Positions 1-62,797 of a DNA stretch of 64,000 nt are shown piece after piece; positions within the stretch are counted from its first letter, which is position 1; the number at the start of each line of letters is the position of its first letter. The DNA is from Escherichia coli (GTDB lineage: Bacteria; Pseudomonadota; Gammaproteobacteria; Enterobacterales; Enterobacteriaceae). The notes beneath the pieces were generated by a model, which searched no databases, had not been told where the DNA came from, and saw nothing but the letters and a program-made list of their open reading frames with translations. The translations under genes and the position numbers were made by a program. The stretch is from assembly GCF_022846255.1 (NCBI RefSeq), contig NZ_AP025682.1; one strand, 5' to 3'.

Positions 1-531
1 GTGAAATATGAATCAGATGGAGGCCCAGGCATCGCGCGGATCATGGCTTTTTTGATGGGGTCCTGCGAGGCGCTGAAAGATCGCTATGATTTTATGAAGT
101 TTCAGGTGTTCCAGTGGTTGATTGGCGCAACGGATGGCCATGCAAAAAACTTCTCCGTATTTATTCAGGCTGGCGGCAGTTATCGACTCACGCCATTTTA
201 CGACATCATTTCAGCATTTCCGGTATTGGGTGGCGCGGAAATACACATCAGCGATCTCAAACTGGCAATGGGGCTTAATGCATCCAAAGGCAAAAAAACG
301 GCAATCGATAAAATTTATCCGCGACATTTTCTGGCGACAGCAAAGGTGCTGAAATTTCCGCAAGTGCAGATGCATGAAATCCTGAGTGACTTTGCCAGAA
401 TGATTCCGGCAGCACTGGATAACGTGAAGACTTCATTACCGACAGATTTTCCGGAGAACGTGGTGACGGCAGTTGAAACCAATGTGTTGAGGTTGCACCG
501 TCGGTTAAGCCGAGAATACGGTATTAAGTAA
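1..531 (+). CDS. hipA: HipA serine/threonine kinase toxin, C-terminal 176 codons (gene starts upstream of the window)
   Basis: ORF translation matches the HipA C-terminal region (…GATDGHAKNFSVFIQAGGSYRLTPFYDIISAFPVLGG…LRLHRRLSREYGIK); truncated by the window edge, not a pseudogene. Confidence 0.9.
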   Translation: MKYESDGGPGIARIMAFLMGSCEALKDRYDFMKFQVFQWLIGATDGHAKNFSVFIQAGGSYRLTPFYDIISAFPVLGGAEIHISDLKLAMGLNASKGKKTAIDKIYPRHFLATAKVLKFPQVQMHEILSDFARMIPAALDNVKTSLPTDFPENVVTAVETNVLRLHRRLSREYGIK

Positions 532-811
532 GATATGGGGTGTGGCCGTTGTTAATGAGCAGGACAATCATGACCGCCAACGGCTGGATTCTCCCTTGGT
601 TTATGTTGGTGCGCATAATGTATATTATGTTAAATTGAATTTGAGTGATGCGAAGCGATTTTCCAGTCGTCGTTATTACTTCAGGGTTCCAGAACATAAA
701 GCCTCTCCTCTTTCATAATTGGCCTGTGCATACCGGATATAGGCTGGCTGGTATGCAGGTTTGCCGTTTGCCGCATCTTCCCTGCGTTGATGAGTCAGGC
801 TGGCAAACCGC

Positions 812-1066
812 GTGCAAATGAACACCCCCTCTTTCCATCAACATTTCAGACAGCTTGCGGGAATGAGTCCACTCCGGTATCGGAAATGGCTAAGCCTCAA
901 TGAAGCCAGGCGACTGATGCTGAATGAACATTACGATGTCACCACTGCAGCCTATGCTGTCGGTTACGAAAGCTTATCCCATTTCAGTCGGGAATATTCG
1001 CGGATGTTTGGAGAGTCACCTAAGAGAGATATTACCAGGTTAAGAAAGTCTGTCGGTCAGCTTTAA
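812..1066 (+). pseudogene. yneL: AraC-family regulator remnant (C-terminal helix-turn-helix only)
   Basis: 84-aa ORF is only the AraC-type C-terminal HTH (…LSHFSREYSRMFGESPKRD…); no N-terminal domain in frame upstream; position between hipA and the fimbrial operon as for K-12 yneL. Confidence 0.6.
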
Positions 1067-1292
1067 TAAACCCTACACTTATCTGTTTAGAGCAATTCCG
1101 TGTTAGTTACACCAGGCAAACATTAACTATGGCTAATGATTTATAGCCATATAAACCATTGGTCGCTCTTGACCTTTCCTGACACTTCCCTTGTTCGCAA
1201 TAATATTCTGTTTAGTCACGGTTTATAAATAACATGCATAATGAAATCGTCATGTTATTTAGCGACATAAAATGTCTTTGCAAATACTCTCT

Positions 1293-1320
1293 ACAACAAG
1301 TGCTGCAATAAACTTGTTGT
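1293..1320 (+). promoter_or_regulatory. Inverted repeat (acaacaag…cttgttgt) in the AT-rich leader upstream of the fimbrial major subunit
   Basis: 8-bp arms with 12-bp spacer read directly in sequence; function unknown. Confidence 0.3.
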
Positions 1321-1499
1321 GATTAGGTGTCCTTGTAATTTAAAGATATTATCGTTCTTCGTGAAATGTAATAACCCTGGAAACTATATTCTCAGGGCAA
1401 CTACCAATTAAGAATGATTCTTGTTTTATAAGCAATAACAGAATGACTTAATTGTTAACTCTCTTTATTCAGCTACTTAAATATAAATTTTGGAGAATT

Positions 1500-2063
1500 A
1501 TGAAACTCAAACATGTCGGTATGATTGTCGTTTCTGTATTGGCGATGTCGTCTGCTGCGGTAAGCGCAGCCGAGGGTGATGAATCAGTAACGACCACTGT
1601 TAATGGCGGTGTTATTCATTTTAAAGGTGAAGTGGTAAATGCCGCTTGTGCGATTGATTCAGAATCAATGAACCAAACGGTTGAGCTGGGTCAGGTCCGT
1701 TCTTCTCGTCTGGCTAAAGCGGGTGACCTCAGCTCCGCCGTTGGCTTCAATATCAAGCTGAATGATTGTGATACCAATGTTTCCAGTAATGCAGCTGTTG
1801 CATTCCTGGGTACTACTGTCACCAGTAATGACGATACATTAGCGCTGCAGAGTTTAGCGGCAGGCTCTGCCCAAAATGTTGGTATTCAAATTTTGGACCG
1901 TACGGGGGAGGTATTAATACTTGATGGTGCCACTTTTAGCGCTAAAACTGACTTGATTGATGGCACGAATATATTGCCGTTCCAGGCTCGATATATTGCT
2001 CTCGGGCAGTCAGTAGCTGGTACTGCAAACGCAGATGCGACCTTCAAAGTTCAATATCTATAA
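1500..2063 (+). CDS. F9/Yde-type fimbrial major subunit (FimA-like pilin)
   Basis: Signal peptide [23 protein letters not shown] followed by pilin-like sequence with conserved Cys pair; GGAG ribosome-binding site before ATG 1500; first gene of chaperone-usher operon. Confidence 0.85.
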
Positions 2064-2104
2064 TTCAATCTTAAGGTGGCTATACGTCATCTGAAATTGA
2101 AACA

Positions 2105-2133
2105 GGGTGTGTGTGGCATGGCTACGCACACCC
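2105..2133 (+). terminator. Intra-operon stem-loop after the major pilin gene (possible attenuator)
   Basis: gggtgtgtgt…acgcacaccc hairpin about 40 bp after the pilin stop; such hairpins after the major subunit gene are typical of chaperone-usher operons. Confidence 0.45.
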
Positions 2134-2415
2134 GAGCAATATACCTATGTTCATCTCATTTTTAATGAGGAATGGTTTTTATTTGGGAGCACTATGAAAA
2201 ATCACATAATATCTAAACGATCAATAAACAACAGTAGTTAAACTTGCTGTTATTTAAAATATTTACTTGGTAGCAAGGTTTTCCTATCAAAAGAGAACCA
2301 ACATTTATTACAAACGCATTAAGTCTGGAAACCCGGCGACTCGCCAATGTATTAGCAATATTTACCGATTGTCTGATGTAACGGTTTCCCCGCTTATCCT
2401 CTTAACACATGGAGA

Positions 2416-3135
2416 ATGCATCAGATGCAAACTACGCGTACCCCCTACTCTGTTTCCTTTATGGCGACAGTGTTACTTTTATTGCTCTTTGCTTGCCATA
2501 GCACCATTGCCAACGCAGCTGTCGCACTTGGTGCGACGCGGGTAATTTATCCGGCAAACCAGAAACAGGTTTTATTGCCTGTCACGAATAATGATCCTGC
2601 CAGTGTCTATCTCATTCAGTCATGGATAGAAAATGCGGGTGACCAGAAAGATACCCAGTTTGTCATTACCCCACCGCTTTTTTCCATGCAAGGTAAAAAA
2701 GAGAATACGCTTCGGATAATCAACGCCACTAATCATCAGTTACCAGGCGACCGTGAAAGCCTGTTCTGGGTTAATGTTAAAGCTATCCCTGCTATGGAAA
2801 AAGACCAGAAGAATGAGAATACATTACAGCTGGCAATTATTAGCCGCATAAAAATGTTTTATCGCCCCACGCATCTGGCAATGGCACCTGAAGAAGCGCC
2901 TGCAATGCTTCGGTTTCGTCGCAGCGGTAGCAAATTCACTCTTATTAATCCAACGCCCTACTTCATTACCGTAACGAATATGAAAGCAGGAAATAGCAAT
3001 CTCCCAAACACCATGGTGCCGCCAAAAGGTGAAGTATCGGTGGATATCCCGCATGCGGCAACCGGGGATATCAGTTTTCAGACAATCAATGATTACGGTG
3101 CATTAACTCCGCGTATTAAGGCAACCATGCAGTAA
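2416..3135 (+). CDS. Periplasmic fimbrial chaperone (PapD/FimC-like)
   Basis: N-terminal signal peptide (…LLLLLFACHSTIANA) and chaperone-like sequence; start codon uncertain (2416 to 2461). Confidence 0.8.
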   Translation: MHQMQTTRTPYSVSFMATVLLLLLFACHSTIANAAVALGATRVIYPANQKQVLLPVTNNDPASVYLIQSWIENAGDQKDTQFVITPPLFSMQGKKENTLRIINATNHQLPGDRESLFWVNVKAIPAMEKDQKNENTLQLAIISRIKMFYRPTHLAMAPEEAPAMLRFRRSGSKFTLINPTPYFITVTNMKAGNSNLPNTMVPPKGEVSVDIPHAATGDISFQTINDYGALTPRIKATMQ

Positions 3136-3176
3136 GCCAGTGACCTAATTAATAATAAACTCAATCGGGATTAAAA

Positions 3177-5828
3177 ATGACAGCCTTTCGTGCCGCATTT
3201 AAGGCATATCGTATGCATCAGGTGTTAATACTGCCTCGCTTTGCACGGCTTACCTTTGCCCTTGGCTTAGCAACTGCGGTTTTTCCCGTTGACGCAGAGT
3301 ATTATTTTAATCCACGGTTTTTAAGCAATGACCTTGCTGAATCTGTCGATTTATCTGCCTTTACTAAGGGACGCGAGGCCCCACCTGGTACATATCGGGT
3401 CGACATTTATTTGAACGACGAATTTATGGCTAGTCGGGATATTACTTTTATTGCAGATGATAATAACGCAGATCTCATCCCATGCCTGAGTACAGACCTT
3501 CTTGTCAGTCTTGGCATAAAAAAATCAGCATTATTAGACAACAAGGAACATTCGGCAGAAAAACATGTGCCGGACAACAGCGCATGCACACCACTTCAGG
3601 ATCGTTTGGCTGACGCATCATCTGAGTTTGATGTTGGTCAGCAACATCTGTCACTCTCCGTTCCGCAAATATATGTCGGCAGAATGGCTCGCGGCTATGT
3701 TTCTCCTGATCTGTGGGAAGAAGGAATAAATGCCGGGCTACTAAACTATAGTTTTAATGGTAATTCTATTAATAACCGTAGTAACCATAATGCAGGAAAA
3801 TCCAACTATGCATATTTGAATTTACAGAGTGGCATCAACATTGGTAGTTGGCGACTGCGCGATAACTCAACGTGGAGTTATAACAGTGGGAGTAGCAATT
3901 CATCTGACAGCAATAAATGGCAGCATATCAATACGTCGGCTGAACGTGACATTATTCCGTTACGCTCACGGTTAACAGTGGGTGATAGTTATACCGATGG
4001 CGATATTTTTGACAGTGTGAACTTTCGTGGCCTTAAAATAAATTCAACAGAAGCGATGTTGCCCGATAGCCAACATGGTTTCGCTCCGGTGATTCATGGT
4101 ATTGCTCGTGGCACCGCACAAGTGAGTGTAAAACAGAATGGATACGATGTTTATCAGACTACTGTCCCACCCGGCCCTTTTACTATTGATGATATCAACT
4201 CTGCGGCCAATGGTGGTGATCTGCAAGTAACCATAAAAGAGGCAGACGGCAGTATTCAGACATTATATGTTCCTTATTCGTCTGTTCCGGTTCTCCAACG
4301 TGCTGGATATACGCGTTATGCACTTGCCATGGGGGAATATCGTAGTGGAAATAACCTGCAAAGCACCCCCAAGTTCGTACAAGCAAGCTTGATGCATGGT
4401 CTGAAAGGAAACTGGACACCTTATGGCGGAATGCAAATTGCAGAAGATTATCAGGCCTTCAACCTTGGTATTGGTAAAGATTTAGGACTTTTTGGTGCCT
4501 TTTCTTTCGATATTACGCAGGCCAATACGACACTTGCAGATGACACCCGTCACAGCGGACAATCGGTTAAATCCGTCTACAGCAAATCCTTCTACCAGAC
4601 GGGAACCAATATCCAGGTCGCAGGATATCGCTATTCTACGCAAGGTTTTTATAACTTATCCGACAGTGCATACAGTCGAATGAGTGGTTACACCGTCAAG
4701 CCTCCTACCGGAGACACCAGTGAGCAGACACTATTTATTGATTATTTTAATCTGTTCTACAGTAAGCGTGATCAGGAACAAATAAGCATCTCTCAGCAGC
4801 TTGGAAATTACGGTACGACATTTTTCAGTGCCAGTCGCCAAAGTTACTGGAACACGTCACGCAGCGACCAGCAAATATCATTTGGATTAAATGTGCCGTT
4901 TGGTGATATTACGACTTCGCTGAATTACAGCTATTCCAATAATATATGGCAAAACGATCGGGATCATTTACTCGCTTTTACGCTTAATGTTCCCTTTAGT
5001 CATTGGATGCGTACAGACAGTCAGTCGGCATTTCATAATTCAAACGCCAGTTACAGTATGTCAAACGATTTGAAAGGCGGCATGACCAACCTATCAGGGG
5101 TTTATGGCACTCTGCTACCGGATAATAACCTGAATTATAGTGTTCAGGTCGGTAACACCCAAGGGGGTAATACATCGTCTGGCACCAGTGGTTACAGTTC
5201 TCTTAATTATCGTGGAGCTTACGGTAATACGAATGTCGGTTACAGTCGGAGTGGTGACAGCAGCCAGATTTATTACGGAATGAGTGGTGGGATTATTGCT
5301 CATGCTGATGGCATCACCTTTGGACAGCCGCTGGGCGACACAATGGTTCTGGTTAAGGCTCCTGGCGCTGATAATGTCAAAATAGAGAACCAGACCGGAA
5401 TTCATACCGACTGGCGTGGCTATGCCATATTACCATTTGCGACAGAATATAGAGAAAATCGTGTCGCTCTTAACGCGAATTCCCTTGCAGATAATGTTGA
5501 ACTGGATGAAACCGTAGTCACTGTCATCCCAACTCACGGTGCTATTGCCAGAGCAACATTTAATGCACAAATCGGCGGGAAAGTATTAATGACGTTGAAG
5601 TACGGTAATAAAAGCGTTCCATTCGGTGCAATTGTCACTCACGGAGAGAATAAAAATGGCAGCATTGTCGCGGAAAATGGTCAGGTTTATCTGACTGGAC
5701 TTCCACAGTCAGGGAAATTACAGGTTTCATGGGGCAATGATAAAAACTCAAACTGTATTGTCGATTACAAGCTTCCTGTAGTCTCTCCTGGAACCTTGCT
5801 GAACCAGCAGACAGCAATCTGTCGCTAA
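3177..5828 (+). CDS. ydeT: Fimbrial outer-membrane usher (FimD-like), full length
   Basis: 883-aa ORF with usher hallmarks (YFNPRFL…, GTYRVDIYLN…, C-terminal Cys pair); a pseudogene in K-12 but intact here; exact start uncertain. Confidence 0.85.
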   Translation: MTAFRAAFKAYRMHQVLILPRFARLTFALGLATAVFPVDAEYYFNPRFLSNDLAESVDLSAFTKGREAPPGTYRVDIYLNDEFMASRDITFIADDNNADLIPCLSTDLLVSLGIKKSALLDNKEHSAEKHVPDNSACTPLQDRLADASSEFDVGQQHLSLSVPQIYVGRMARGYVSPDLWEEGINAGLLNYSFNGNSINNRSNHNAGKSNYAYLNLQSGINIGSWRLRDNSTWSYNSGSSNSSDSNKWQHINTSAERDIIPLRSRLTVGDSYTDGDIFDSVNFRGLKINSTEAMLPDSQHGFAPVIHGIARGTAQVSVKQNGYDVYQTTVPPGPFTIDDINSAANGGDLQVTIKEADGSIQTLYVPYSSVPVLQRAGYTRYALAMGEYRSGNNLQSTPKFVQASLMHGLKGNWTPYGGMQIAEDYQAFNLGIGKDLGLFGAFSFDITQANTTLADDTRHSGQSVKSVYSKSFYQTGTNIQVAGYRYSTQGFYNLSDSAYSRMSGYTVKPPTGDTSEQTLFIDYFNLFYSKRDQEQISISQQLGNYGTTFFSASRQSYWNTSRSDQQISFGLNVPFGDITTSLNYSYSNNIWQNDRDHLLAFTLNVPFSHWMRTDSQSAFHNSNASYSMSNDLKGGMTNLSGVYGTLLPDNNLNYSVQVGNTQGGNTSSGTSGYSSLNYRGAYGNTNVGYSRSGDSSQIYYGMSGGIIAHADGITFGQPLGDTMVLVKAPGADNVKIENQTGIHTDWRGYAILPFATEYRENRVALNANSLADNVELDETVVTVIPTHGAIARATFNAQIGGKVLMTLKYGNKSVPFGAIVTHGENKNGSIVAENGQVYLTGLPQSGKLQVSWGNDKNSNCIVDYKLPVVSPGTLLNQQTAICR

Positions 5829-5841
5829 GGAACAATAGATT

Positions 5842-6372
5842 ATGAAATACAATAACATTATTTTCCTCGGTTTATGTCTGGGGTTAACCACCTATTCTGC
5901 TTTATCCGCAGATAGTGTTATTAAAATTAGCGGGCGCGTCCTCGATTATGGCTGCACAGTCTCATCGGATTCGCTTAATTTTACCGTAGATCTCCAAAAA
6001 AACAGTGCCAGACAATTTCCAACGACCGGTAGCACAAGTCCAGTCGTCCCTTTTCAGATTACATTAAGTGAATGCAGCAAAGGGACAACGGGAGTTCGGG
6101 TTGCATTTAACGGTATTGAGGATGCAGAAAATAATACTCTGTTGAAACTAGATGAAGGAAGCAATACGGCCTCCGGTTTGGGTATAGAAATACTGGACGG
6201 AAATATGCGTCCGGTGAAATTGAATGACCTTCATGCTGGGATGCAGTGGATCCCATTGGTACCAGAACAGAACAATATTTTGCCTTACTCCGCTCGTTTG
6301 AAGTCAACTCAGAAGTCCGTCAATCCAGGACTGGTGAGCGCTTCGGCAACCTTTACCCTTGAATTTAAATAA
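5842..6372 (+). CDS. ydeS: Fimbrial minor subunit (FimF-like)
   Basis: 176 aa with signal peptide; length and order match K-12 ydeS. Confidence 0.85.
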   Translation: MKYNNIIFLGLCLGLTTYSALSADSVIKISGRVLDYGCTVSSDSLNFTVDLQKNSARQFPTTGSTSPVVPFQITLSECSKGTTGVRVAFNGIEDAENNTLLKLDEGSNTASGLGIEILDGNMRPVKLNDLHAGMQWIPLVPEQNNILPYSARLKSTQKSVNPGLVSASATFTLEFK

Positions 6373-6384
6373 TCAGAGTCAGAT

Positions 6385-6888
6385 ATGAAAAGACTTCACA
6401 AGAGGTTCCTGTTAGCTACGTTTTGCACATTATTCACAGCAACTCTCCAGGCCGCCGATGTCACTATCACTGTTAATGGTCGGGTAGTCGCTAAACCATG
6501 CACTATTCAAACCAAAGAAGCTAACGTTAATCTCGGGGATCTTTATACACGCAATCTGCAACAACCTGGTTCTGCATCTGGCTGGCACAATATTACTTTG
6601 TCATTAACCGATTGTCCGATTGAAACAAGTGCAGTGACGGCAATCGTGACAGGTTCAACTGACAATACGGGTTATTACAAAAATGAAGGTACTGCCGAAA
6701 ATATTCAGATAGAGCTAAGGGATGACCAGGATGCGACGTTAAAAAATGGCGATAGCAAAACGGTTATTGTTGATGAGATCACTCGTAATGCACAGTTTCC
6801 ACTTAAGGCAAGAGCTATCACGGTGAATGGAAACGCAAGCCAGGGTACGATCGAGGCGCTAATCAATGTGATCTATACCTGGCAATAA
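6385..6888 (+). CDS. ydeR: Fimbrial minor subunit (FimG-like)
   Basis: 167 aa with signal peptide; length and order match K-12 ydeR. Confidence 0.85.
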   Translation: MKRLHKRFLLATFCTLFTATLQAADVTITVNGRVVAKPCTIQTKEANVNLGDLYTRNLQQPGSASGWHNITLSLTDCPIETSAVTAIVTGSTDNTGYYKNEGTAENIQIELRDDQDATLKNGDSKTVIVDEITRNAQFPLKARAITVNGNASQGTIEALINVIYTWQ

Positions 6889-6947
6889 CATCAATTTGAT
6901 TTTATTTTCCTCCTTTTTAAATCAATTTTTTAACCTTAGGATATATC

Positions 6948-7862
6948 ATGGGTAAAACATTCAGTATAAAGGTCCTGTTCGGTATTTATCTTCTATTAAT
7001 TGCAGGCAAAGTTTTTGCCTTCAGTTGTAATGTCGATGGCGGGTCAAGTATTGGAGCAGGTACAACCTCTGTTTATGTTAATCTCGATCCTGTAATACAA
7101 CCGGGCCAGAATCTGGTTGTAGACTTGTCTCAGCATATAAGTTGCTGGAATGATTACGGCGGCTGGTACGACACTGATCATATAAACCTGGTACAAGGAT
7201 CAGCTTTCGCAGGCTCCCTACAGTCATATAAAGGATCACTGTACTGGAATAATGTGACCTACCCTTTCCCGTTGACGACAAATACCAACGTATTGGATAT
7301 TGGTGATAAGACACCGATGCCATTACCGTTAAAACTCTATATTACCCCAGTCGGAGCGGCTGGTGGAGTTGTCATAAAAGCAGGGGAAGTTATTGCCCGT
7401 ATTCATATGTATAAAATTGCCACGTTAGGAAGCGGAAATCCGCGTAATTTTACGTGGAATATTATTTCAAATAACAGTGTTGTTATGCCAACAGGCGGTT
7501 GCACCGTTGATAGTCGTAATGTCACCGTGAATCTCCCGGACTTTCCTGGAAGCGCAGAAATACCCCTTGGTGTATATTGCTCTAGCGAACAAAAGCTCTC
7601 ATTTTATCTTTCGGGTGCCACCACTGACAGTGCCCGACAAGTGTTTGCTAACACAGCACCAGATGCAACAAAAGCATCGGGCGTGGGTGTCTCTCTGATG
7701 CGTAATGGAAAAACACTGGCAACAGGAGAAAATGTCTCCCTGGGGACAGTAAATAAAAGCAAAGTACCTCTGGGTTTAAGCGCAACCTATGGACAAACAG
7801 GAAACAAGGTTGCAGCCGGAGCCGTCCAGTCAGTCATTGGTGTCACTTTTATCTATGAATAA
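6948..7862 (+). CDS. ydeQ: Fimbrial tip adhesin (FimH-like two-domain adhesin)
   Basis: 304 aa with signal peptide; last gene of operon; length matches K-12 ydeQ. Confidence 0.85.
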
Positions 7863-7934
7863 TTGTGATTTTGACATTAGTCTATGCGCTCCATTCACGA
7901 AAATTGCGCGGATAATTATTTTGTGAAGGCTATT

Positions 7935-7952
7935 ATCCTACACTTGTAAGAA
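7935..7952 (+). promoter_or_regulatory. EvgA box upstream of ydeP
   Basis: aTCCTACA-CT-TGTAAGAA matches the EvgA inverted-repeat consensus TTCYTACA-N2-TGTRGAA. Confidence 0.6.
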
Positions 7953-8051
7953 AATCCGCGCACAATTGAAGCCAGAGTCTTATTTTTTATATTGAGAATT
8001 ATGTTAATTTAAACCCTATGAGAGATGATGCTTAACTTATCGTATTTATAC

Positions 8052-8110
8052 TACTCTATTATTTAACGATAATAGAGTAAAAATAGTAAGAGAGTAGTCC
8101 CCTACTCTTA
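8052..8110 (+). repeat. Perfect 11-bp inverted repeat (tactctattat-ttaacg-ataatagagta) plus further TACTCT/AGAGTA copies
   Basis: Read directly in the ydeQ-ydeP intergenic region; four copies of the hexamer in alternating orientation. Confidence 0.5.
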
Positions 8111-8200
8111 TATATCCATGTTGACGATAAACCCTATGTATATACTGTGCATCATCGCTATTACAAATCCTAATAATTCATTTCCACACAGGATAAGCAG

Positions 8201-10480
8201 ATGAAGAAAAAAATTGAATCCTACCAGGGAGCTGCCGGTGGTTGGGGTGCTGTTAAATCCGTAGCGAATGCAGTACGTAAGCAGATGGATATACGCCAGG
8301 ATGTTATTGCCATGTTTGACATGAATAAGCCAGAGGGCTTTGACTGTCCGGGATGTGCATGGCCAGATCCTAAGCACAGTGCGTCATTCGACATTTGTGA
8401 AAACGGCGCAAAAGCAATCGCCTGGGAAGCCACGGATAAGCAGGTAAATGCCTCTTTCTTTGCTGAGAATACGGTTCAATCATTACTTACCTGGGGAGAT
8501 CACGAGCTTGAGGCTGCGGGACGTCTCACTCAGCCTTTGAAATATGATGACGTCAGCGACTGTTACAAGCTATTAAGCTGGCAACAAGCTTTCGACGAAA
8601 TTGGCGAACGCCTTCAAAGCTATAGTGATCCCAATCAGGTTGAATTCTATACTTCGGGCCGCACTTCCAATGAAGCTGCCTTTCTTTATCAGCTTTTTGC
8701 CCGTGAATACGGGAGCAATAACTTCCCCGACTGCTCCAACATGTGCCATGAACCGACCAGTGTGGGTTTGGCAGCGAGTATCGGTGTAGGTAAAGGGACC
8801 GTGTTGCTGGAAGACTTTGAGAAATGCGATTTAGTCATTTGCATTGGGCATAACCCTGGTACAAACCACCCTCGCATGTTGACTTCGTTGCGCGCTTTAG
8901 TGAAACGGGGAGCGAAAATGATCGCCATCAATCCTCTACAGGAACGTGGCCTGGAGCGATTTACCGCACCGCAAAACCCGTTTGAAATGCTGACGAACTC
9001 TGAGACTCAGTTGGCCAGTGCCTACTACAACGTGCGCATTGGTGGTGATATGGCGTTGCTCAAGGGGATGATGCGCCTGTTAATTGAGCGCGATGATGCT
9101 GCAAGCGCCGCAGGTCGGCCCTCATTGCTGGATGACGAATTTATTCAAACGCATACCGTCGGCTTTGACGAGCTACGCCGTGACGTGCTCAATTCCGAGT
9201 GGAAAGATATCGAACGTATTTCTGGATTAAGTCAGACTCAAATCGCCGAACTGGCTGATGCATATGCCGCTGCCGAACGCACCATTATCTGTTACGGAAT
9301 GGGGATCACTCAGCACGAACATGGTACCCAGAATGTACAGCAACTGGTCAATCTGCTGTTGATGAAAGGTAACATTGGCAAGCCTGGTGCGGGTATCTGC
9401 CCACTACGAGGTCACTCTAATGTACAGGGCGACCGAACCGTCGGTATCACCGAGAAACCGTCTGCAGAGTTTCTGGCTCGCCTGGGTGAGCGCTATGGTT
9501 TCACCCCACCTCATGCACCTGGACATGCTGCAATTGCCAGCATGCAAGCAATATGTACGGGGCAGGCTCGCGCATTGATCTGCATGGGGGGCAACTTTGC
9601 ACTGGCAATGCCAGATCGGGAAGCGAGCGCTGTACCGTTAACGCAATTAGATCTGGCGGTACACGTTGCCACTAAGCTTAACCGCTCTCATCTGCTGACC
9701 GCACGGCATAGCTATATTCTGCCGGTTCTGGGACGTAGCGAGATTGACATGCAAAAAAGCGGTGCGCAGGCGGTAACCGTTGAAGATTCAATGTCGATGA
9801 TTCATGCCTCGCGTGGTGTGTTAAAACCCGCCGGTGTAATGCTGAAATCAGAGTGTGCAGTGGTCGCGGGAATCGCGCAAGCAGCACTACCCCAGAGCGT
9901 GGTAGCCTGGGAGTATCTGGTGGAAGATTATGATCGCATTCGCAATGACATTGAAGCTGTGCTGCCAGAGTTTGCCGACTATAACCAGCGCATCCGTCAT
10001 CCTGGTGGTTTTCACCTGATAAACGCAGCAGCTGAAAGGCGCTGGATGACGTCGTCAGGTAAGGCTAATTTCATTACCAGTAAAGGGCTGTTAGAAGATC
10101 CCTCTTCAGCGTTTAACAGTAAGCTGGTCATGGCGACAGTACGCAGTCACGATCAGTACAACACGACGATTTATGGTATGGATGATCGCTATCGAGGGGT
10201 ATTCGGTCAACGAGATGTGGTCTTTATGAGTGCTAAACAAGCTAAAATTTGCCGTGTAAAAAACGGCGAAAGAGTTAATCTTATTGCACTCACGCCAGAC
10301 GGTAAACGTAGCTCACGCCGCATGGATAGATTAAAAGTGGTCATTTACCCTATGGCTGACCGCTCACTGGTGACCTATTTTCCAGAATCGAATCACATGC
10401 TAACACTTGATAACCACGATCCATTAAGTGGCATTCCTGGCTATAAAAGTATTCCGGTTGAATTAGAACCATCAAATTAA
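8201..10480 (+). CDS. ydeP: Acid-resistance molybdopterin oxidoreductase (formate dehydrogenase-like, FdhF family)
   Basis: 759-aa ORF matching YdeP length and sequence; no in-frame TGA. Confidence 0.92.
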
Positions 10481-56227: not shown

Positions 56228-56303
56228 GCCTGATGCGCTTCGCTTATCAGGTCTACAACCGGGCTAATGTAGGCCGGATAAGGCGTTTACGCCACATCCG
56301 GCA
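56228..56303. repeat. REP (repetitive extragenic palindromic) element pair between yddE and nhoA
   Basis: gcctgatgcgcttcgcttatcaggtctac and tgtaggccggataaggcgtttacgccacatccggca match REP consensus. Confidence 0.75.
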
Positions 56304-62747: not shown

Positions 62748-62797
62748 ATAATAAAAAAGCCGGGGAGATTTAAAATCTTCCCGGCTTTCTTTATCAT

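Follow-up and report, generated by a model that had tools for sequence, protein, structure and literature searches.

The stem-loop that lies behind the major pilin gene of the Escherichia coli F9 (Fml, ydeQRS) chaperone-usher fimbrial operon is a previously undescribed example of a familiar design, in which the major pilin cistron is followed by a structured 3′ end, and it is neither a classical terminator nor a FimR2-type element. The hairpin (GGGTGTGTGTGGCATGGCTACGCACACCC) occupies positions 2105-2133 of a 64,000-nucleotide stretch of E. coli DNA (hereafter, the window), to which all coordinates refer unless another genome or locus is named. As to its function, we give an even chance to a cis-acting role in the sense RNA, in which the hairpin would set the 3′ boundary of a short and stable pilin-only mRNA of ~0.89 kb (TSS ~1249 to ~2135).

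Position, structure and conservation of the F9 hairpin

The F9 operon fills positions 1-8200 of the window, bordered by a hipA remnant and an AraC-type remnant on one side and by ydeP on the other, and its gene order (Table 1) is the same in the RefSeq annotation of O157:H7, GF130 and E400634. The major pilin, in whose homologues Pfam PF00419 is found, has its TAA stop codon at 2061-2063; the hairpin starts 41 nt 3′ of this codon, and 361 nt with a GC content of 0.37 separate the stop codon from the annotated ATG of the chaperone (2425). These distances agree with the ~40 bp and the ~350-bp gap given in the first-pass annotation of the window, which had also read the order of major pilin, gap, chaperone, usher and three minor subunits correctly. 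Furthermore, the predicted f9 promoter agrees with the promoter mapped by 5′RACE in CFT073, which has a -10 CATAAT, an 18-bp spacer and a TSS 251 nt before the pilin ATG (PMC3966885).

Table 1. Features of the F9 operon in the window, with the basis on which each was placed.
Feature	Position	Strand	Basis
f9 operon promoter, TAGTCA-18 nt-CATAAT, predicted TSS ~1249	1213..1242	+	promoter scan
F9 major pilin gene, fmlA / Z2200 / c1936 orthologue (RefSeq label 'fimA')	1500..2063	+	ORF list, annotation of orthologous records
Part of pilin 3′UTR, single-stranded, A-rich, polymorphic among alleles	2064..2104	+	allele alignments
Hairpin, 13-bp stem, AUG loop, -22.4 kcal/mol	2105..2133	+	folding, conservation
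Variable AU-rich untranslated spacer	2134..2275	+	composition, polymorphism
Conserved structured chaperone leader	2276..2424	+	alignment, folding
F9 periplasmic chaperone gene, 711-nt CDS	2425..3135	+	ORF list, RefSeq annotation
F9 usher gene	3177..5828	+	ORF list, RefSeq annotation
Minor subunit ydeS	5842..6372	+	ORF list, RefSeq annotation
Minor subunit ydeR	6385..6888	+	ORF list, RefSeq annotation
Adhesin ydeQ	6948..7862	+	ORF list, RefSeq annotation

The hairpin consists of 13 consecutive pairs (11 Watson-Crick and two G·U) around a 3-nt AUG loop and folds with -22.4 kcal/mol, against a mean of -10.4 kcal/mol for its shuffled versions (z -4.54; 0/200 fold equally well). The coordinates proposed beforehand were exact and are borne out by this folding energy; of the arms described with them (gggtgtgtgt…acgcacaccc), the outer 10 bp were right, and the stem runs three pairs further. 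When both strands of the 64-kb window were scanned for local single hairpins with a span of <=45 nt, the F9 hairpin came out at rank 7 among 179 hairpins at <= -17 kcal/mol. Of the top seven, six lie in GC-richer sequence and the F9 hairpin alone in the AT-rich (GC 0.37) pilin-chaperone spacer. As background comparison, the same scan returned a strong bidirectional terminator-like hairpin at 62753-62791 (AAAGCCGGGGAGATTTAAAATCTTCCCGGCTTT). Moreover, the structure is strand-biased: its two imperfect positions are G·U on the plus strand and C·A on the minus strand, and the minus-strand version folds with only -14.6 kcal/mol (z -2.3; z -1.1 in a 61-nt context). This asymmetry of -22.4 versus -14.6 kcal/mol favours a role at the RNA level, on the sense transcript of the operon.

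Of 5,426 complete E. coli genomes, 3,590 contained the hairpin element, always at a single place, with a 43-nt core identical in 2,248 of them, and in the single-mismatch variants that were fetched every change fell in the flanks. In an alignment of 11 alleles, variable columns numbered 1 of 29 in the hairpin and 37 of 108 in the flanking 3′UTR and spacer (Fisher p = 4e-4); the sole hairpin variant, G2126T in a wobble pair (E400634 and N96), still folds with -18.6 kcal/mol. Judged from these alignments, the hairpin is under sequence constraint. Covariation is absent because the hairpin is essentially invariant among E. coli alleles, so that support for the pairing consists of thermodynamics, strand bias and conservation, and sequence conservation by itself would equally fit a protein-binding site.

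In several E. coli genomes, in-frame pilin-chaperone fusion proteins were also observed (P0057, P0072, P0093 and P0099), with four different junctions. The deletions behind them (~1900-2700 relative to the window) are independent events in which the C-terminus of the pilin and the N-terminus of the chaperone were lost together with the hairpin and the spacer. As read from these sequences, the F9 operon seems to have been inactivated repeatedly by deletion in the pilin-chaperone interval.

Comparison with FimR2-type modules and other F9-type operons

Among 58 FimA-family loci collected from the genomes of many Enterobacterales, nearly all of the 56 pilin genes surveyed had a hairpin within ~50 nt of the stop codon, and the F9 hairpin was the strongest post-pilin hairpin of the survey (-22 to -24 kcal/mol, against a median near -12). 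In the paralogous fim operon, the fimA 3′UTR yields FimR2, a 35-nt RNase E-processed sRNA composed of a single-stranded stretch plus a stem-loop without a poly-U tail (PMC9723502), which in K-12 is b4838. A FimR2-like module followed the pilin stop at nearly all of the 58 loci and was conserved in 46 distinct type 1 fimA 3′UTRs (L004:1665-1722; L007-L059, after the pilin stop), with hosts in Klebsiella, Citrobacter, Enterobacter, Raoultella, Kluyvera, Serratia, Pantoea and others. The module has two small helices with one GGA motif each, one of the motifs being in the loop of the main hairpin, followed by GTTATCC, and its main stem is GGGCC/GGCCC, of 5-7 bp; its pairing covaries, with 26 cells changed on both sides, a value reached by 0/500 shuffles.

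Like these modules, the F9 hairpin belongs to the 3′UTR of a major pilin gene of the FimA family. The likeness extends to the distance of 10-45 nt after the pilin stop, to the setting in a paralogous gamma-1 fimbrial operon and to a stem-loop without a poly-U tail. However, FimR2-type elements offer GGA motifs to CsrA and have stems of 4-7 bp, at ~-9 to -13 kcal/mol, whereas the F9 stem is 13 bp long, folds with -22.4 kcal/mol and carries AUG in its loop, with no GGA motif in 2064-2168. A covariance model built from the 46 family members gave K-12 FimR2 30.8 bits and the 3′UTR of a Citrobacter F9-type operon (L006) 10.6 bits, a weak match; run with filters off on window 2040-2440, its best hit had 3.9 bits (local E 0.48), in an alignment that deleted both helices. 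Likewise, the similarity of the F9 3′UTR to the fimA 3′UTR was not significant in local alignment against shuffles (p = 0.11-0.27). A shared ACGTCAT, which is at chance level, and a shared CACCC had been suggestive of homology to FimR2, which was rejected on the failure of both the shuffle test and the covariance model.

Outside E. coli, the hairpin of F9-type operons in Citrobacter and others is a different, short one whose loop contains GGA, and no homology links their spacers to that of the window. The loci in question are those of Citrobacter sp. JGM124 (L006), L065, for whose pilin the protein database gives Morganella morganii, and L066, from a Logan assembly; all three lack fimI, have an AT-rich spacer of 440-450 nt and keep the short hairpin GGGCAAGGATAGCCC with GGA in its loop, which makes the 13-bp hairpin specific to the E. 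coli F9 lineage. A search for divergent orthologues (GTDB genome scan, protein search, contig look-ups) turned up none with the F9 hairpin, which all E. coli alleles share. It is conceivable, though in our judgement very unlikely, that the E. coli F9 lineage replaced an ancestral CsrA-binding FimR2-like module with a much stronger, GGA-less hairpin, which would have uncoupled F9 from the CsrA/FimR2 circuit. The product would have been either a pilin mRNA that is hyper-stable or else a new, stable RNA derived from the 3′UTR, with trans targets of its own. If so, such targets might lie, for instance, in cross-talk with type 1 fimbriae or in low-temperature motility.

One further locus (L063:2501-3671, GCA_902850055.1) carries a chimeric pilin at the hipA-adjacent F9 position. 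This pilin is 83% identical to that of F9, and its 3′ end, the 3′UTR (identical to the K-12 FimR2 region) and a fimI-like gene are of the fim type, which denotes either F9/fim recombination or a misassembly. Being an F9/fim chimera with a genuine fimA 3′ end, FimR2 and fimI, the locus is uninformative on F9.

Termination, small-RNA and antisense readings

The hairpin region is without annotation in every RefSeq record listed, and a cmscan of 1000-8300 against Rfam 15 (E up to 10) gave no match in 2000-2450. A REP/BIME or other dispersed repeat was ruled out by the single-copy status of the element in the 3,590 genomes; a true REP palindrome that the hairpin scan returned from the same window as background comparison (GCCGGATGTGGCGTAAACGCCTTATCCGGC, 56273-56302) differs from it in sequence. 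A decayed fimI in the 361-nt gap was also rejected, tblastn with FimI, FimA, the F9 pilin, YdeS and YdeR giving a best E of 0.3 over 9 aa.

With intrinsic terminators the F9 hairpin shares a GC-rich stem-loop just 3′ of a gene, here a 13-bp stem 41 nt after the pilin stop. It differs from them in having no U-tract and in lying within an operon whose downstream genes are co-expressed. The 15-nt tail 3′ of the stem (GAGCAATATACCTAT) has a T-score of 0.07, against 3.6-5.6 in canonical tails, and the terminator scan made no call at 2105-2133; a canonical intrinsic terminator was ruled out on these two grounds. A leaky terminator or attenuator, in which the stem would stop some of the RNA polymerases, possibly aided by NusA/NusG or by a hairpin and T-run at 2155-2184, so that fewer transcripts reach the chaperone and usher, seems to us unlikely. 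In pap and other fimbrial operons, the gene of the major subunit is classically followed by a stem-loop or terminator; a terminator structure of papA is mentioned in PMC5927463. Apart from the strength of the GC-rich stem directly after the pilin gene, this reading could draw on the weak hairpin CTCATT/AATGAG followed by GGTTTTTATTT, 20 nt downstream. However, the low score of the primary tail (GAGCAAUAUACCUAU) and the missing scan call weigh against partial termination as well, and the second hairpin has a tail that scores just 0.51 and is broken in S88, E400634 and N96; it was rejected as a true terminator for want of conservation. Moreover, the pilin and chaperone genes c1936 and c1935 are co-regulated (-3.2 and -3.7-fold; PMC2648988), and a plasmid carrying c1931-c1936 in pBAD30, a vector with the ara promoter, over-expressed the F9 pilin and made F9 fimbriae (PMC3966885). 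From this co-regulation and the functional clone, transcriptional read-through appears to occur.

The position of the hairpin also invites comparison with FimR2 in function: RNase E might release a 3′UTR-derived sRNA by cutting 5′ of the stem (e.g., GAA|AUU, ~2094), leaving a hairpin-stabilized core that acts in trans. FimR2 itself comes from the same position and is a stem-loop without a poly-U tail (PMC9723502), the F9 hairpin and its loop are strictly conserved, and an RNase E-like AAAUU, read directly from the sequence, stands at ~2093-2097, ~8 nt before the stem. Even so, we regard an sRNA of this kind as highly improbable: the two GGA motifs that FimR2 and its 46 relatives present are missing in 2064-2168, the FimR2-like covariance model scores far lower here than on K-12 FimR2 and the resemblance to the fimA 3′UTR is non-significant, as reported above; the putative seed region (2064-2104) is polymorphic, and the region has neither an Rfam match nor an annotation in the records listed. 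Quite unlikely, too, is a hairpin with no role in the sense RNA, be it a terminator or insulator for antisense transcription from the AT-rich spacer, a protein-bound DNA palindrome or a functionless, young, lineage-specific insertion. On the minus strand (2085-2133), the weaker hairpin is followed by UGUUUCAAUUUCAGA, with a T-score of 2.42, and might terminate antisense transcripts begun in the AT-rich spacer, where a promoter-like site was seen on that strand at 2165-2138. The confinement of the hairpin to E. coli F9, with its absence from the F9-type operons of Citrobacter and others, and the absence of covariation would also fit such a reading. Nevertheless, the minus-strand fold is much weaker than its counterpart, the terminator scan made no call there either, and it is on the sense strand that the two imperfect positions form G·U pairs. 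As for youth, the flanks within 40 nt carry several haplotypes across which the hairpin is invariant, which argues against an element that is simply young.

A possible 3′ boundary of the pilin mRNA and the chaperone leader

The structure that would be needed for a 3′ protective hairpin is present at the F9 locus, where a stable fold at the 3′ boundary of the pilin is followed by 361 nt of untranslated spacer with 37% GC. Its location directly 3′ of the cistron that is needed in the greatest amount was likewise counted in favour of a boundary. The absence of a U-tract and of a terminator-scan call makes the protection of a processed 3′ end a better fit than intrinsic termination, and makes any differential expression more likely to come from 3′-end protection and differential decay than from simple intrinsic termination. 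In this context, the first-pass annotation had seen in the hairpin a structure of the kind that gives high pilin and low downstream expression: the strong and constrained hairpin, near-universal after FimA-family pilins, is supported, and the simple intrinsic termination that was implied is not.

What follows on RNases, Rho, transcript ends and stoichiometry is our inference. Transcription that starts at the f9 promoter would cross the pilin gene, and ribosomes would leave at the pilin stop, after which 361 nt of untranslated AU-rich RNA would be exposed to RNase E and perhaps to termination assisted by Rho or H-NS. The 3′-to-5′ exonucleases PNPase and RNase II would then trim back and stall at the 13-bp GC-rich stem, so that the pilin cistron may outlive the segment for the chaperone, usher and tip subunits. 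Pausing of RNA polymerase or inefficient termination at the stem may contribute. The result would be a high ratio of pilin to assembly machinery, which a structure predicted to mask the chaperone ribosome-binding site would reinforce.

Published expression data show that the pilin and the distal genes can diverge (Z2200 1.4-fold, ydeQ/ydeR 2.2-fold; PMC3769235), and in a study of the Fur regulon fmlA was the only gene of the F9 operon listed as regulated (PMC7157518). On transcript ends or per-gene abundance across the hairpin, the literature gave fold-changes only, and no 3′-end mapping was found for F9-carrying strains. Precedents exist in the 3′ protective structure of malE-malF and in the differential decay of papBA and of cfaAB of the CFA/I fimbriae (Dar and Sorek, 2018; PMC5927463). 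With this type the F9 locus shares a stable stem-loop that ends the first and most needed cistron, a poorly ribosome-protected segment next to it and the lack of a U-tract, and, as with 3′ protective stem-loops in general, the expected outcome is more product of the upstream gene. Unlike the F9 hairpin, which is single-copy, the malE-malF element is a multi-copy REP, and papA is stabilized by an upstream RNase E cut, a 5′ hairpin and a true 3′ terminator, an arrangement that differs from that of F9.

Several findings stand against a boundary set by the hairpin. Few canonical RNase E motifs were seen in the spacer, which is not C-rich and hence a poor rut candidate, and a short 5-bp hairpin suffices in the F9-type operons of other genera. 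A sigma-70-like site (TTGGGA-16 nt-CATAAT, 2183-2210) was also observed on the sense strand of the spacer; it is a match to the consensus only, partly conserved among alleles, and could be a candidate internal promoter for the chaperone, usher and tip genes. Such a promoter and the Shine-Dalgarno-masking leader described below could alone set the levels of chaperone and usher, in which case stoichiometry would not need the hairpin.

Toward the chaperone, at ~2276-2424, the gap is much better conserved in the alignment than in its 5′ part, and a second structured element lies there, one that the first-pass annotation had not noted. A predicted 10-bp helix (2371-2380 with 2417-2426) covers the chaperone start codon, and the Shine-Dalgarno sequence GGAG (2411-2414), 10 nt 5′ of that codon, is predicted to pair with CUCU (2399-2402). 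The fold z was -3.06 for 166 nt and -2.6 for 63 nt, and in the divergent alleles of the leader one pair had changed in a compensatory way from A-U to G-C and another from U·G to U-A. On the predicted fold, the leader may act as a brake on chaperone translation or respond to temperature, and it would lower that translation independently of the hairpin. It may thus contribute as much as the hairpin to low downstream expression.

Two Fur ChIP peaks of CFT073 (coordinates 1778955 and 1777552; supplements of PMC7157518) map to ~1405, in the pilin 5′UTR, and to ~2808 of the window, ~383 nt inside the chaperone gene. A Fur site in the spacer was therefore excluded for the peak assigned to the chaperone, which maps inside that gene, the spacer itself having no peak.

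In brief, a hairpin after the pilin gene follows a textbook principle, so the finding refines what is known without changing it. Across Enterobacterales, the two-GGA module of the FimR2 type is widespread in the 3′UTRs of type 1 fimA genes, and E. coli F9 is an exception. F9 (Fml) fimbriae are of importance in chronic urinary tract infection, in the colonization of cattle and in attachment to plants, and their expression is poorly understood beyond H-NS repression and induction at low temperature. The candidate stability element of the pilin mRNA and the Shine-Dalgarno-masking leader of the chaperone offer two mutable targets for subunit stoichiometry and post-transcriptional control.
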